Shown: in pieces, positions 27,369 through 47,116 of the stretch
Position numbering within the stretch: position 1 is the stretch's first letter
Layout of the letters: each line of letters begins with the position of its first letter
NCBI GenBank assembly: GCA_963695245.1
Contig: OY968770.1
Coordinates: forward strand, 1,559,198-1,623,197
DNA: 64,000 nt
Origin: an uncultured Gammaproteobacteria bacterium
GTDB lineage: Bacteria > Pseudomonadota > Gammaproteobacteria > JBGSLN01
Reading direction: 5' to 3'
Notes under the pieces: model-generated
Database searches by the model: none
What the model saw: the letters and a program-made list of their open reading frames with translations, nothing else
What the model was told of the DNA's origin: nothing
Position numbers and translations under genes: made by a program

Positions 27369-30300
27369 ATGAACGCACTTACATTGACTTTTACAACAGC
27401 TAAAAAAAGCACTGCCCGATATGATCTTGCTAAACCTTCTGAGTACACCAAAGCAAAGCGTTTCATAACTATAAAAATTAGTCGCGGATCTATCGCTGAT
27501 TTAGAATCCTTAAGAGATCAACTTACGGCTTTTAATAGCAAAGAACATTCTGTAACAACTGAATTAGCTCGAATATCAGCAGAGCTTGCTGAACGAGAAA
27601 AAAGTGGTTCTATTATCATCAAAACAAAATATCAATCTTATGATATAAACAAACTAGAACGACATAAGTTACTAAAATCAGCAATAAAACGTTATGGTAA
27701 GCAAAAAAAGTTTGTAGAGATTAAGACTTTGCTCAAAACCGTCAATAAGAAATTAAAAGATCAACCAAGTCATAAAAGATTGTGTGAGTTGCAGTCACTG
27801 TTACAAAATTTAACTGGCCTTGAACAAGAGCAGGAGTACATACCTTACACCACCTTGTTGCAACAAGAGTTTTTGCCTGCTAAAAAAACTATAAAGAAAA
27901 TAGCTGACTTTGATGCAGATTTTACACCCTCTGAATACTTAGAAGCCTCTGTTACTGCCGAAACTGAAACAGGACAAGATGACATTGATGCTCTTTCAGC
28001 CTGCTTTTGGCTGGATTTTGCCAAAAACACGGGCTTTCTTGCCGGTGAATTTGATCGCCATCATGTCATTCTTTATTTAGTGCTTGTGCAAGGATTTTTT
28101 TCTCATTGCGCCAGTTATTATCCTGAGCAAGGTTATGGCAAGTCACCTAAGGCAGAATGTGAAGATCCATTATTTTATGCTCGTTCACAAGCAAAACATC
28201 ATGCTATTGCTGGTTATAAAAAAGCTCAAGAGGACAGTGTAAATTATGGCAAACAAAATAGAGCGTACTTACAAATGGTTAAAAGCTGTAAAGCATTGAT
28301 GAATAGTGATACTCAAGCATTAGCTGCTAGGGTCAATGTAGATGGTAGTTTAACAGAAAGAGTATCAGGACAACGCCTTGGTGAAATCCTTGCACATTTG
28401 GGTAGTAGAGCAAGTAATGCGACTTTATTTTATGGGTTATTAGAGCGTGCATATGATGGCTCACTGTTGGATGACTTTGAACGTTTAAAACATTACATTC
28501 CAGATAAGGGCAAAAAGCGGTTCTTTAATAAAGTCCGTCTTGGAAAGCGTCTTCTTAGCCTTCGCGAATCTTTTAATGCGTTTAAAATGAGTGATGTGCT
28601 TGTGCTATACCCCAATATTATGGGCGATATTATGGCTTCGCGCTACGCTGCAGCCCAATCTATTAAAACTCAATGCGAAGTTAACACTTTAGAGAATGTT
28701 GCCATTGATGTTCCTGAGAACAGTGGTTTTTTCTACATTCGTTGTTATCCAAACTTTACTGATACTGTTCGAAAAGAATCCAGTAATTTTAATGAAGGCT
28801 TAACTAACGTCATTCTTGGCTTTTTTGGAGCTTTAGTTAATTATTATGCTATGGAAGCAGGTCTTCATTATCGTCTGGCTCGGCGCCAAAGTTTTGGATT
28901 TTTGCGCGCAAGCATAACCGATACAGGTTCTTTAAGATTAAGAGTTTCTTTGGACGCGGATTCAAATGCATTCGCAGGAATTTATGTTCAAGCCTTAACT
29001 CAGCTCAATATTCTTTTGAAAAAATTTGACTTTACTAACCCTGAGTCAATCACAGATCCTAATATAAAATCCACTGTAAAAAACTGTTTAAAACCTTGTG
29101 AAGATTCAAAAGGCAGGAGAGTTACGCAAAATACAGGTGACCATTTAAGGGCGGCAATGCGTTGTGAAGATGATCAATGGATAGCTTTATTGGTTGGTGA
29201 AAAATATCTAAAAAGACAGGAAGGGTCACAGGATGCTGACGCTATAGCTACTGCTGCTTATAAAGCCTATTTAGATGAGTTTATCTATCAACGCGCTAAA
29301 CGGAAAAAAGTTTCTGATGGTGAACACAAAGACATTCCTCGGGATGGTTATTCCGTTGCTAATCCTGCCAAAGTTAAACTGGAAATACCGTCTACTGATG
29401 ACCCCAATAATATTGTTGCGTCTCACCCCATATTAAAACTACTTAACAATATGGTTGTAACCACTGTGGCATACATCAGATCATTACCCAAACTCGACGT
29501 TTCTGAATCAATCTATTTTATTCTTTGGAAATTATTAAGAAACTGTCAGAAAGGCCAAGCCATTCTTAATAACACTCACCGATATGAAATCTCCCATATT
29601 TTAGCAAAAGCAATGGGTGTCGTTGAAACTATTCAAGAGTATTTATTGCCATTAAAAGTTTTGGCAAAAGATGTTTCAACGGCAAAAGATGATTTAATAA
29701 ACATCGACAAAGCTCGCTTTGCCCCTTTAGTCGAAGATTCAAAAGACGCCATAGAGATTTTTTATAACGATGGTGGATTACAATCCATTAATACTGGTTT
29801 ATTAGCTATGGGATTTGAAGGTATAAAAACAGTGCATCTATTTAATGATTGTTATTACGAAATCGAAAAATTTTGTCATGAAAATGGTATAAAAACAACG
29901 AAAAAACCTAACGCAGATCATTGGTTATGTGATATCACCCAAATATCGGCATTGAATATAGCATTAATGGCTGCACTTAATGGCTCTAACCCTGAGAATG
30001 CCAAGCCGAAAGCCATTTTGATTGATATCACCAATAACAGTACAAAAGCTGCCATAGAAAAATTAAAGCCCTTAGTTGAAACCGCTCAGCAAAATAACAT
30101 TTATGTTATCTTGAGTTGCAGCATTTTAAAGCATGAGCAATTAGGACAAGATAAATACCAAAGTGGCCGTAATGTTATCATTAAACCTCCCGAAAAATCT
30201 CTGAAGTCTCGGACAACCCTCAAACATCTTAATGCTATTTCAGAAGAAGCGATGAATGATCTGTTTTCTGCCTGTCGGCAAATTACTGAAACAGTATCCT

Positions 30301-30428
30301 ATCGAGTAGAACATGCAGAAGCACTTAAGGCTCATGGTTTATTTAAACGATCAAAAACACAACCAATGGTTCAAGCTAAAAGTCATTTAAGGAACAGCGC
30401 TGACACACCACCAAAGCTCTTAATATAA
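27369..30428 (+). CDS. 1019-aa hypothetical effector-like protein with possible PLP-dependent transferase-like segments
   Basis: Long uninterrupted ORF with RBS GGAG; motifs DGGLQSI, CYYEIE, ILIDITN, SILKHEQLGQDKYQSG; function inferred. Confidence 0.6.
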   Translation: MNALTLTFTTAKKSTARYDLAKPSEYTKAKRFITIKISRGSIADLESLRDQLTAFNSKEHSVTTELARISAELAEREKSGSIIIKTKYQSYDINKLERHKLLKSAIKRYGKQKKFVEIKTLLKTVNKKLKDQPSHKRLCELQSLLQNLTGLEQEQEYIPYTTLLQQEFLPAKKTIKKIADFDADFTPSEYLEASVTAETETGQDDIDALSACFWLDFAKNTGFLAGEFDRHHVILYLVLVQGFFSHCASYYPEQGYGKSPKAECEDPLFYARSQAKHHAIAGYKKAQEDSVNYGKQNRAYLQMVKSCKALMNSDTQALAARVNVDGSLTERVSGQRLGEILAHLGSRASNATLFYGLLERAYDGSLLDDFERLKHYIPDKGKKRFFNKVRLGKRLLSLRESFNAFKMSDVLVLYPNIMGDIMASRYAAAQSIKTQCEVNTLENVAIDVPENSGFFYIRCYPNFTDTVRKESSNFNEGLTNVILGFFGALVNYYAMEAGLHYRLARRQSFGFLRASITDTGSLRLRVSLDADSNAFAGIYVQALTQLNILLKKFDFTNPESITDPNIKSTVKNCLKPCEDSKGRRVTQNTGDHLRAAMRCEDDQWIALLVGEKYLKRQEGSQDADAIATAAYKAYLDEFIYQRAKRKKVSDGEHKDIPRDGYSVANPAKVKLEIPSTDDPNNIVASHPILKLLNNMVVTTVAYIRSLPKLDVSESIYFILWKLLRNCQKGQAILNNTHRYEISHILAKAMGVVETIQEYLLPLKVLAKDVSTAKDDLINIDKARFAPLVEDSKDAIEIFYNDGGLQSINTGLLAMGFEGIKTVHLFNDCYYEIEKFCHENGIKTTKKPNADHWLCDITQISALNIALMAALNGSNPENAKPKAILIDITNNSTKAAIEKLKPLVETAQQNNIYVILSCSILKHEQLGQDKYQSGRNVIIKPPEKSLKSRTTLKHLNAISEEAMNDLFSACRQITETVSYRVEHAEALKAHGLFKRSKTQPMVQAKSHLRNSADTPPKLLI

Positions 30429-30467
30429 ATCAATGAGTTAGAGCATTAAAGTGACCCCATTGTCTAG

Positions 30468-30704
30468 ACCGCTGATGATAAATTTAGACAGGAACATCAC
30501 AACTTTTTAAAGCTCTTTTTCAATGAGGACAAACTTTTAGCCTGTGGCCGACAAACTTCAAATGCTGGTGGGGTGATTATCGCCAAAACCGAAACAAGGC
30601 AAGTCTTTGAAGTCATTCTAAATACAGATCCTTTTGTGAGAGAAAGGCTGGCTCAGTACGAAATCTATGAGTTTATGCTTTTTTTTCGAATTTATAGTAA
30701 ATGA
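30468..30704 (+). pseudogene. 5'-truncated YciI-family gene
   Basis: DKFRQEHHNFL...ACGRQ...GGVIIA...DPFVRE...YEIYEF; no start codon, in-frame TAG at 30465. Confidence 0.7.
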
Positions 30705-30916
30705 GATATATTCCACTGACATAACAAAAATATAAATATCCAGGCACAATCAGTGTAGATTCAACACAATTTAACGAATTCCCCCCACAAAACCCCACAC
30801 TTTCAAAAATTTCTTTATAAAAGCACCCTTTTTTTGAATTTTTAATCATTAAAGCACTTATTATTTATTTTTGTTCAAAAGACAAACAAAGGAAGGTGGT
30901 TATAAAAATTTATATA

Positions 30917-30978
30917 AATCAAGTGTTTATACAGATTTTCAAAAAGTTATACACATCAAAATAGTAACTTGTGGATAA
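30917..30978. promoter_or_regulatory. IHF site plus two inverted DnaA boxes upstream of the dcw promoter
   Basis: AATCAAGTGTTTA (WATCAANNNNTTR) 30917-30929; TTATACACA 30947-30955; TGTGGATAA 30970-30978. Confidence 0.6.
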
Positions 30979-31030
30979 AAGTGGGAATAAGTGAAAAAAA
31001 GTGGTGTTTTTTCCCAGAAATGTGTATACT
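30971..31030 (+). promoter_or_regulatory. MraZ-binding repeats and dcw promoter
   Basis: GTGGA-TAAAA-GTGGG-AATAA-GTGAA-AAAAA-GTGGT (10-bp period), then extended -10 TGTGTATACT. Confidence 0.75.
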
Positions 31031-31237
31031 GAGTTCTACCAGGTGGGAATTCCTGGGTTGCTAACGACAAACAGTACAGATTTTAGAGTGATGATTTCCC
31101 TCAGACCCCAATCCCCACTCATTGCTTTAAAAATTAGTACTGCGAAGTTGTGGTTTAAGACGTACTTGAATAGCGCAGCATTTATTGCTGCGCACTTTCT
31201 AACAAAGTGCAGCAGTAATTCTGCAAAAGTTTAACGT

Positions 31238-31308
31238 TCTTCTGACCTGTAAGTTTTACTAGAGGGGGCAATTTTTAGTGATACTTCGCAGGGCAGAAGA
31301 CTTTTTTT
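31238..31308 (+). terminator. Long hairpin plus U-tract inside the mraZ leader
   Basis: TCTTCTG-A-CCTGT-AAGT...ACTAGAG / TTTTAGT...ACTT-C-GCAGG-G-CAGAAGA followed by CTTTTTTT. Confidence 0.55.
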
Positions 31309-31359
31309 CTTCAGCCTGGACAGGGCGTTCGGGCATAATTTAGCTAAGTTTATATTCTT

Positions 31360-31821
31360 ATGTTTCGAGGCATTACCGGTATCAACATTGATGCAAAAGG
31401 TCGGATGGCGATTCCCAAGCGCTATCGTGACGTTTTGGCAAAATCAGTGGATAGCAACCATCAGGTTGTGGTTACCATTGATACGGAATCCCCTTGCCTG
31501 TTACTTTATCCTGCCCTTGAATGGGACATCATTGAAAATAAATTACAAGGCTTACCCAGCTTTAATCCGGCAACCCGTCGTATTCAACGTTTATTGATTG
31601 GTCATGCAACGGAGCTTGAAATTGATGGCAATGGACGGTTACTGATTCCGCCAGTTTTAAGGGATTATGCCAGTTTAAACAAAAAACTAATGCTGGTAGG
31701 GCAGGGTAAAAAATTTGAAATCTGGGATGAGGAAACTTGGAATAACATGCGAGAACAATGGCTGGCAGAAACCACTTCAACACAAGCACTGCCTGAAGAC
31801 TTACAGGATTTATCATTATAA
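31360..31821 (+). CDS. mraZ: Division/cell wall cluster regulator MraZ
   Basis: MFRG...IDAKGRMAIP...DGNGRLLIP. Confidence 0.97.
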   Translation: MFRGITGINIDAKGRMAIPKRYRDVLAKSVDSNHQVVVTIDTESPCLLLYPALEWDIIENKLQGLPSFNPATRRIQRLLIGHATELEIDGNGRLLIPPVLRDYASLNKKLMLVGQGKKFEIWDEETWNNMREQWLAETTSTQALPEDLQDLSL

Positions 31822-31824
31822 ACC

Positions 31825-32754
31825 ATGCACAAACCCGTTTTATTTGAACAGACTCTGAATGCCTGGTTAACGGATACTAAAGGTATTTACATCGATGGCA
31901 CTTTCGGTAGAGGTGGGCATGCAAAAGGCCTGTTAGATAAGTTGTGTGAAGAAGGCAGATTGATTGGCATTGATAAAGACTTAACAGCTATTAATTATGG
32001 TAAACAAGTCATAAAAGATCCCCGTTTACAACTTGTACACGGTGGGTTTGCTGAGATTGCAGCCATTGCAAACAAATTTGAGATATATGGCAAAGTGAGC
32101 GGTATTTTACTGGATATTGGTGTGTCTTCACCTCAATTAGATGAAGCTCAAAGAGGATTTAGCTTTTTAAAAGCGGGACCTTTGGATATGCGCATGGATC
32201 AGACACAGACTTTGGACGCACAGCAATGGGTGAATGAAGCGCCCTTAGATGAAATGATTAAAGTCTTCAAAGAATATGGAGAGGAGCGATTTGCTGGAAG
32301 AATTGCCAAAGCCATAGTACAGCATCGGCAGGAAAAACCCATTACTCAAACCTTACAGTTAGCTGAAATTGTCAAACAGGCAAATCCCAAATGGGAAAAG
32401 AACAAACACCCTGCTACTCGGGTGTTTCAGGCAATTCGCATTCGTGTGAATGACGAGCTTGAAACTTTAAAAAGTGCTTTAGCCCAATGTGTGGACATTT
32501 TAAAACCTGGAGGAAGGCTATTAGTCATTAGTTTTCACTCTTTAGAAGACAGAATAGTAAAACAATTTTTTAAAAAGCTCACGAGCGCACCACCTATACC
32601 AAAGGGTTTACCTAAAGGTTTGCCGATACCAGCGGCGCTTGAACCAATTAAATATAAGCTTTGTATCAAAGCTATCAAAGCAAGCGATGAGGAAATAAAA
32701 GAAAACCCCCGAGCAAGAAGTGCAGTGCTAAGAGGGCTGGAGAAATTATCATGA
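31825..32754 (+). CDS. rsmH: 16S rRNA C1402 methyltransferase
   Basis: DGTFGRGGH, DIGVSSPQLD, PLDMRMD, ISFHSLEDR, NPRARSA. Confidence 0.97.
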   Translation: MHKPVLFEQTLNAWLTDTKGIYIDGTFGRGGHAKGLLDKLCEEGRLIGIDKDLTAINYGKQVIKDPRLQLVHGGFAEIAAIANKFEIYGKVSGILLDIGVSSPQLDEAQRGFSFLKAGPLDMRMDQTQTLDAQQWVNEAPLDEMIKVFKEYGEERFAGRIAKAIVQHRQEKPITQTLQLAEIVKQANPKWEKNKHPATRVFQAIRIRVNDELETLKSALAQCVDILKPGGRLLVISFHSLEDRIVKQFFKKLTSAPPIPKGLPKGLPIPAALEPIKYKLCIKAIKASDEEIKENPRARSAVLRGLEKLS

Positions 32755-46892: not shown

Positions 46893-47116
46893 AAAAAACT
46901 ACCTTTTATCATAAGGTTATGCTAGAATTTTGTATCTTTTAAGTAAAATTATATTTAACTTATTGATTATTTTGAATTTTTATTGGGGTGAGCGGTTTCA
47001 TCCCAAGTTTTTATCACTCACCGTTACCTGAGGGAAATGGAACGGGGTTGGGCGGACTGCAAAAATCTTTTTGCTGGCTCAAAGGGGCGTGACTCAATCA
47101 AGGTCAAAGCAAGATA

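Follow-up and report, generated by a model that had tools for sequence, protein, structure and literature searches.

A conserved, structured leader with a predicted intrinsic terminator precedes mraZ in a clade of uncultured Gammaproteobacteria

Introduction

In the stretch of 64,000 nucleotides (nt) from an uncultured gammaproteobacterium analyzed here (the window, to whose first letter all positions refer), the cluster for division and the cell wall (dcw) begins on the plus strand with mraZ, and the mraZ start codon (ATG at 31360) is separated from the putative -10 hexamer of its promoter (31025-31030) by 329 nt, in agreement with the approximately 325 nt given in an earlier note on this DNA. 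The locus thus raises the question of what so long a leader does: whether it is a transcription attenuator or riboswitch, as that note proposed, the source of an MraZ-regulated small RNA (sRNA), which was its other option, an extension of the MraZ operator, or a spacer without function. Comparison with relatives and the stability of the predicted fold provide good support, within the limit of three sequences, for a conserved, structured and non-coding leader that ends in a predicted intrinsic terminator, and the results do not bear out the proposed switch.

Dosage control of the dcw operon beyond autoregulation by MraZ is poorly understood. An sRNA that arises from an mraZ leader with its own terminator is documented in one case only, UpsM of Rhodobacter sphaeroides, and such leaders were described by its authors as exclusive to Rhodobacteraceae (PMC5089854). 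Literature listings and abstracts on mraZ leaders, attenuators, riboswitches and untranslated regions (UTRs) likewise point only to the Rhodobacter work for an element of this kind. A second, unrelated lineage with the UpsM layout would suggest convergent leader-RNA control of cell division; if so, bacteria would have arrived more than once at a terminator-bounded RNA ahead of the cell-division operon, and the arrangement would not be an oddity of Rhodobacteraceae.

Results

A long structured leader between the MraZ-box promoter and mraZ

The leader spans approximately 320 nt and is made up of two modules, a 5' module (31039-31161) and a 3' module (31173-31308). Upon folding, the 286-nt stretch that the earlier note had marked reaches -92.1 kcal/mol, compared to -69.1 +/- 5.1 kcal/mol for 200 dinucleotide shuffles (z = -4.5), none of which (0/200) is as stable. 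Counterparts were found at two other loci, one in a genome of the same genus (G001) and one on a metagenome contig (L009), so that with the source genome (G000; a single contig of 2.17 Mb, 38% GC) three relatives are known; all three carry the 5' module, and two of them (G000 and G001) carry the 3' module, which follows a conserved linker.

The length of the leader sets these loci apart. The distance from the triple of GTG boxes to the mraZ ATG is 379 nt in the source genome, 401 nt in G001 and 205 nt in L009; of the 64 other loci that have such a triple, 63 stay at or below 190 nt, the exception being L064 (272 nt). Three other genera of the family are without such a leader, their last GTG-box triple starting 93-127 nt before the ATG. 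With a transcription start site (TSS) that the sequence would place near 31037-31038, the predicted mraZ 5' UTR is long (>200 nt), as in the UpsM type.

A putative MraZ operator at 30971-31004 on the plus strand is made up of four direct GTG[G/A] boxes that repeat every 10 nt exactly (GTGGA at 30971, GTGGG at 30981, GTGAA at 30991 and GTGGT at 31001), consistent with the published definition of GTG(G/T) boxes with 6-nt spacers and a four-box operator (PMC12957436) and with at least three direct boxes at that spacing near the mraZ promoter. These boxes are also present in G001 and L009, and a box triple lies 5' of mraZ in 67 of the 85 loci examined. The putative -10 hexamer TATACT (31025-31030, plus strand) lies within GTATACTG, which is identical in all three relatives; in other genera of the family a -10-like hexamer occurs approximately 24-25 nt past the last box (L005 and L006) or approximately 16 nt past it (L007). 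A consensus promoter scan of 30400-31500 returned zero plus-strand promoters and likewise missed the putative TATACT, because no good -35 accompanies it.

The leader matches no Rfam family and does not encode a conserved protein. A cmscan search of 30400-31500 against 4227 Rfam families at E <= 10, a check for which the earlier note had called, gave eight matches, all far below their gathering scores and none of them a riboswitch; the best E-value anywhere in this interval is 1.4, which is chance level, and the statement in that note that no known Rfam family is recognizable therefore holds. In the source genome an open reading frame (ORF) crosses the 5' module; in G001 one base change inside a conserved loop interrupts it, and the module is therefore non-coding; its alignment also contains indels. 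A coding reading of the leader was considered and ruled out, as its ORFs are not conserved.

The 5' module

Aligned across the three relatives, the 5' module is predicted to consist of a short hairpin (P1) and a rod of three helices (P0, P2 and P3), all on the plus strand. P1 stands at the 5' end (31039-31056) and comprises CCAGG, the loop UGGGAAUU and CCUGG; its five pairs, with a pair probability of 0.999, are invariant in 3/3 sequences, so that there is no covariation, and its loop reads UGGGAAnn across the three. P0 is a weak closing helix between 31057-31070 and 31148-31161, to which RNAalifold assigns 8 pairs with 87.5% of cells paired and no compensatory change; its pair probability in the source genome is only ~0.2, and the helix is uncertain. 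P2 joins CAGUAC (31072-31077) to GUACUG (31137-31142) through 6 pairs, with 94% of cells paired and a pair probability of 0.999, and two of the six pairs are changed on both sides in G001. P3 (31081-31132) has a 14-bp stem (31081-31094/31119-31132) and a C-rich loop of 24 nt (31095-31118, UUUCCCUCAGACCCCAAUCCCCAC); the sequence of the stem differs among all three relatives yet stays paired, 4 of its 14 pairs being changed on both sides, and the loop is almost invariant and is unique in the 2.17-Mb genome. The 3' strands of P2 and P0 together occupy 31137-31161, which includes CTGCGAAGT (31140-31148), the segment that the earlier note had taken for an antiterminator.

In the three-sequence alignment, from which the consensus structure was itself derived, 88.9% of the 99 pair cells are paired, and shifting the partners by 1-3 columns lowers this to 32-41%. 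Changes on both sides occur in 6 of the 33 pairs (two in P2 and four in P3), a count reached by 3 of 500 column shuffles, and the covariation score of 0.364 (vs 0.239) is reached by 1 of 500. Covariation, for which the earlier note had called for a test, is on these counts seen in P2 and P3, and not in P1, which is invariant, or in P0, which has no compensatory change. With its rod, C-rich loop and covarying stems, the module is a compact and distinct 5' motif.

The 3' module and the predicted terminator

The 3' module consists of a GCGCAGC hairpin and a predicted terminator, both read on the plus strand. The first of these, hairpin A (31173-31193), is formed by GCGCAGCA, a UUUAU loop and UGCUGCGC, with 8 bp and a pair probability of 0.81; it recurs in G001 as GCGCAGC...GCUGCGC, lengthened and with another loop, and is missing from L009. 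A variable spacer with small non-conserved hairpins follows (31194-31237), in place of which G001 has a different and larger hairpin. The terminator hairpin (31238-31300) is 63 nt long, has 26 pairs with probabilities >= 0.99 and a free energy of -29.1 kcal/mol, and is built on a lower stem UCUUCUG/CAGAAGA; the G-rich GAGGGGGCAA in its apical region (31262-31271) is conserved. A single C (C31301) and a T7 tract (31302-31308) follow, just as the earlier note had described them. The hairpin ends 60 nt, and the T-run 52 nt, before the mraZ ATG. On the opposite strand no T-run follows the hairpin, and the terminator is therefore predicted to work on the plus strand only.

In G001 a terminator hairpin of -24.3 kcal/mol lies at the same position, with the same lower stem, the same apical GAGGGGGCAA and a T6 tract in the same place. 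Because MAFFT misaligns the G000 and G001 hairpins, no pair count was made in the 3' module and the individual folds were compared instead; read in this way, the upper stem differs in sequence but pairs in both (UUACUA/UAGUGA in the source genome, CACC/GGUG in G001). The lower stem, the apical sequence and the T-run are thus kept between the two genomes though the sequence around them is unalignable. Among the 11 hairpin-plus-T-run candidates in 67 mraZ leaders these two are the strongest, the next reaching -18.7 kcal/mol. A simple terminator scan missed the hairpin because its rules admit only uninterrupted stems and small loops. A Rho-independent terminator of the UpsM type is thus predicted in the source genome and in G001, and L009 is without one.

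Past the terminator lie 50 nt that cannot be aligned between the two genomes, and no conserved second promoter is accordingly seen 3' of the terminator; a weak promoter-like TTCAGC-18-CATAAT was noted by eye at 31310-31339 in the source genome and is not kept in G001.

Close strains differ from the source genome at five listed positions in 31111-31362, as read from single low-depth contigs of four DNA metagenome runs (contigs of approximately 150 nt, none of which spans the leader), and none of the five disrupts hairpin A or the terminator. The difference at 31200 falls on a loop position, that at 31213 keeps G-U compatibility, a 7-nt deletion at 31218 affects a non-conserved 4-bp hairpin, C31287G changes a bulged base of the terminator hairpin, and the last, at 31330, lies 3' of the terminator.

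Distribution of the leader

Only five species genomes of the order to which the source genome belongs are present in the collection. A DNA search with the leader matched 2 of 41 relatives, namely the source genome itself and G001, in which the whole arrangement of boxes, -10, hairpin A and terminator is present and the 5' part is approximately 78% identical. Among 80 loci collected by an MraZ-based scan of metagenome contigs, the element occurs in one only, L009 (MraZ 79% identical), where a 5' part of 82% identity runs straight into mraZ, leaving a leader of approximately 150 nt with no terminator. An exact-pattern scan gave 0 matches in metagenome contigs and one in genome contigs, which is the G001 record. 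A covariance model of the 5' module (R1), run at E <= 10 against 85 sources, recovered the three sequences on which it was trained and no others; with stricter filters, a run against 151 genomes of the class recovered the source genome alone. By this model, which finds nothing outside the clade, the leader is clade-specific.

The upstream neighbor gene differs in G001 and L009, and the leader therefore travels with mraZ and not with that neighbor. In a maximum-likelihood tree of concatenated MraZ and RsmH (9 rows), the three relatives group together (99/99) and L009 falls with G001 (bootstrap 90, SH-aLRT 89). Given this placement, the terminator module is probably ancestral and, with moderate support, was probably lost secondarily in the L009 lineage; as a natural terminator-less variant, L009 would help to separate the roles of the two modules. 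A fourth and more divergent relative is represented by a metagenome contig over 30965-31110, which takes in the operator and the 5' module up to about its midpoint and shows 17 differences and one gap in 146 nt. Public reads therefore contain additional members of the clade.

Discussion

Likeness to the UpsM leader and a proposed mechanism

In R. sphaeroides the mraZ 5' UTR of 268 nt contains a Rho-independent terminator and gives rise to an abundant sRNA, UpsM, of 206 nt; by that account approximately one read-through per 100 transcription events expresses the dcw genes, with no second promoter (PMC5089854). Another sRNA, StsR, base-pairs both with UpsM and with the 5' UTR of dcw, leading to cleavage by RNase E, and UpsM acts in trans on ftsW and mraY (PMC8266604). 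The leader described here is similar in several respects. It is unusually long, a strong predicted terminator stands inside it shortly before mraZ, no second promoter is evident, several structured regions lie 5' of the terminator, a candidate small ORF runs across the terminator, and the RNA that would be released is predicted to measure approximately 270 nt.

Other features differ. UpsM belongs to Alphaproteobacteria and the present leader to Gammaproteobacteria; no Rfam relation was detected for it at E <= 10; its most conserved part is the 5' rod with the C-rich apical loop, whereas in Rhodobacteraceae it is regions R2-R4 including the terminator; and one relative here has probably lost the terminator. 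Since the classes differ and genera in between are without the leader, its origin is most likely independent of UpsM, and the likeness, which is one of layout, is most likely analogy rather than homology. Whether the leader is indeed a convergent analogue of the Rhodobacter leader we regard as an evenly balanced matter.

By analogy with UpsM, the leader would be transcribed from the promoter that bears the four-box MraZ operator, and most transcripts would end at the terminator to give a leader RNA of approximately 270 nt, while a fraction would read through into mraZ and the dcw mRNA. The P0/P2/P3 rod would display the C-rich loop as a contact site for an RNA or protein partner, and such a partner could tune stability, processing or read-through. 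The start of transcription, actual termination, accumulation of the sRNA and any partner are those parts of the scheme that we infer. An sRNA made from the mraZ promoter, the second option of the earlier note, fits the one documented precedent, that of UpsM.

A narrower form of the proposal is put forward tentatively, and we would sooner expect it to fail than to hold: an independently evolved, UpsM-like leader of dual function that would act mainly as a regulatory RNA of approximately 270 nt, whose C-rich loop would serve as seed or docking site for G-rich sequences resembling Shine-Dalgarno (SD) sites in trans or for the terminator loop in cis, with dcw expression set by controlled read-through. 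For the interaction in cis, the two unpaired segments that are conserved best are complementary: UUCCCUC of the P3 loop can pair with GAGGGGG of the terminator loop at -10.7 kcal/mol in the source genome and -14.2 kcal/mol in G001; such a contact would leave the lower stem of the terminator closed and is therefore no obvious antiterminator. Genes for Hfq, CsrA and ProQ are present in the source genome, which shows only that the machinery exists.

Several observations weigh against the proposed mechanism. A strong terminator placed before the essential dcw genes requires substantial read-through or internal promoters. L009 has no terminator, so that the terminator is dispensable there and the 5' module must serve some purpose without it. 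Read as DNA, both conserved loops resemble MraZ boxes (the P1 loop with GTGGG, the P3 loop with GTGGGGATT on its opposite strand), and conservation of their sequence may therefore not reflect a function as RNA. The support for the structure comes from three related sequences only. Lastly, no convincing partner of the C-rich loop emerged, nothing in the searches of the source genome rising above background: exact complements of 10-12 nt occur in about chance numbers, and where the loop can pair near the start of mraZ, the duplex is weak (-7.5 to -9.5 kcal/mol) and its position is not conserved.

One G-rich stretch was considered as a target of the loop and rejected. In the ftsZ-lpxC spacer (47028-47062), CTGAGGGAAAT...GGGGTTGGG complements both halves of the P3 loop, with an 11-nt complement and -25.9 kcal/mol. 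It is judged a chance match; it is absent from G001, where the pairing reaches -16.0 kcal/mol elsewhere, and more than 25 G-rich windows across the genome score better, the best of which (-38.6 kcal/mol) lies where inspection by eye suggests a transporter-like ORF with a glycine-rich motif. Mimicry by the loop of the 16S rRNA site on which RsmH acts was also considered and set aside, the resemblance being weak.

Alternative explanations

The switch proposed in the earlier note would make the leader a regulated attenuator or riboswitch, in which a ligand or factor toggles between a terminator and an antiterminator fold and so sets dcw transcription. Where gene dosage counts, as in this operon, a 5' UTR terminator preceded by a conserved and structured region is what such a mechanism would look like, and the complementarity on which the proposal was built is exact: read in reverse, ACTTCGCAG (31283-31291) of the terminator 3' arm complements CTGCGAAGT at all nine positions. 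As a switch, however, the pairing does not hold up. When the upstream leader is shuffled by dinucleotides, 38 of 300 versions bind the terminator 3' arm at least as well as in the 9-nt duplex (-15.9 kcal/mol), which is within chance; in G001 the complement has no counterpart, the best pairing with this arm reaching -10.3 kcal/mol with 221 of 300 shuffles as good. Pairing with the terminator 5' arm fares similarly (22 of 300 shuffles as good in the source genome; -9.0 kcal/mol and 257 of 300 in G001), and no conserved alternative pairing exclusive with the terminator was found. In the 9-nt pairing, the upstream strand shares nucleotides with the 3' arm of P2, a helix kept by compensatory changes and predicted with near certainty. 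Classical antiterminators and attenuators act on the terminator 5' arm, capturing it while the 3' arm is still to be transcribed, whereas the proposed pairing targets the 3' arm and would have to displace the adjacent 5' arm; furthermore, the C31287G difference of a close strain would break it, and L009 keeps the 5' module with no terminator at all. The two competing folds of the earlier note, GCGCAGCA/TGCTGCGC (31173-31180/31186-31193) and TTATTGCT..GCACTTT/AAAGTGC-AGCAGTAA (31182-31218), are both present where that note had placed them, and the second is without a counterpart in G001.

Nor does anything in the sequence indicate a ligand aptamer, and the Rfam scan described above matched no known class. 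Known aptamers hold their conserved nucleotides in junctions or internal loops, whereas here these nucleotides sit in an apical loop. The attenuator idea was weighed by the UpsM authors as well, and the refolding predicted for UpsM is, by their account, not conserved in Rhodobacteraceae (PMC5089854). A regulated attenuator or riboswitch is on this evidence quite unlikely, and that inference of the earlier note is not retained.

Given the box-like loops, the conserved segments could instead act as DNA, the GTGGG of the P1 loop (31043-47), a fifth box, and the inverted GTGGGGATT (31110-31118, minus strand) being extra MraZ boxes 3' of the start site that would extend the operator or support looping, with the RNA folds secondary. 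GTGGGAAT in P1 and GTGGGGATT match the box consensus (compare box 2, GTGGGAATAA) and both are kept in 3/3 sequences; an inverted GTGG pair with a 10-nt period lies approximately 180 nt upstream (30781-30800) and has a counterpart in L009; and longer spacers between boxes are tolerated by MraZ (PMC12957436). Such a reading leaves unexplained the two-sided changes that keep P2 and P3 paired, as well as the terminator hairpin. The fourth relative, moreover, carries T31044C, which destroys the GTGGG of P1 (in a single low-depth contig), and the MraZ operators described in PMC12957436 are direct repeats. We consider an element acting at the DNA level unlikely. A neutral, lineage-specific insertion, that is, a stable spacer without function or the remnant of an inserted element, would account for the very narrow distribution (three sequences, and absence from the three other genera of the family) and for the missing 3' module of L009. 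It would not account for stems kept by compensatory change and loops kept nearly invariant at approximately 78-82% overall identity, nor for the terminator lower stem, apical sequence and T-run conserved between two genomes amid unalignable sequence; and the leader is single-copy in the genome and is therefore not a repeat or a miniature inverted-repeat transposable element (MITE). This explanation is very unlikely.

Translation could also be coupled to the terminator. A candidate small ORF with a GTG start and 21 codons (31278-31343, plus strand) covers the terminator 3' arm and the T-run, with an SD-like GAGGGGG 9 nt upstream, an assignment that is speculative; ribosomes loading at this site and translating the ORF would open the hairpin and so modulate termination or translation of mraZ. 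In both genomes that have the terminator, GAGGGGGCAA is followed after 7-10 nt by a GTG or TTG start, G001 having an ORF of 11-12 codons in the same arrangement across the terminator; mraZ itself is without an obvious SD sequence; and the UpsM terminator is likewise crossed by a small ORF, with weak reporter activity, which is limited to R. sphaeroides species (PMC5089854). However, neither the peptides (21 vs 11-12 amino acids) nor the frame relative to the stem is conserved, the start codon lies inside the upper stem, where ribosome loading before the hairpin closes is hardly possible, and the G-rich loop could as well be explained by pairing with the C-rich P3 loop. Coupling of this kind we regard as highly improbable.

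Other known leaders

The UpsM-like reading may also be set beside other leaders. SreA and SreB of Listeria are sRNAs derived from riboswitches or attenuators (as cited in PMC5089854); as there, a terminator-bearing 5' leader could yield a short RNA and, on read-through, an mRNA, but here no aptamer, no conserved terminator/antiterminator alternative and no clue to a ligand was found. In E. coli the 5' UTR from mraZ1p is 38 nt (PMC5089854). That locus and those of typical relatives share with the present one the direct GTG[G/T] boxes by the promoter and the order mraZ-rsmH-ftsL-ftsI that follows, whereas the leader here is approximately 8 times longer, structured and furnished with a predicted terminator. 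The mraW RNA motif of Actinobacteria is a hairpin with a conserved terminal loop that lies 5' of mraZ/mraW genes. It differs in belonging to another phylum, and it is not among the Rfam matches in 30400-31500 at E <= 10.

Genomic context and further observations

Downstream of the leader, mraZ (31360-31821, plus strand; Pfam MraZ, E = 4.2e-35) is followed by rsmH (31825-32754, plus strand; MraW methylase, E = 1.6e-108), by ORFs sized like ftsL and ftsI, and by further ORFs and then ftsA, ftsZ and lpxC, all on the plus strand. The stretch directly before the mraZ ATG (31310-31359) shows no obvious SD sequence in the source genome, and none precedes the ATG in L009. Directly 5' of the mraZ control region lies an ORF of 1019 amino acids (27369-30428, plus strand) in which no Pfam domain was found at E <= 0.001.

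Approximately 180 nt 5' of the operator, a C-rich CCCCCCACAAAACCCCACAC occupies 30781-30800, the minus strand of which reads as two GTGG boxes with a 10-nt period. A similar GCCACAAATCCCCAC lies approximately 200 nt 5' of the operator in L009, and G001 has no counterpart. To judge from its boxes, this may be an auxiliary, inverted MraZ site.

An unrelated leader on a metagenome contig (L046) measures 160 nt between box and ATG; approximately 73 nt ahead of its mraZ ATG stands a hairpin of approximately -15.6 kcal/mol followed by TTTTT, possibly another, independent case of an mraZ leader with a terminator.

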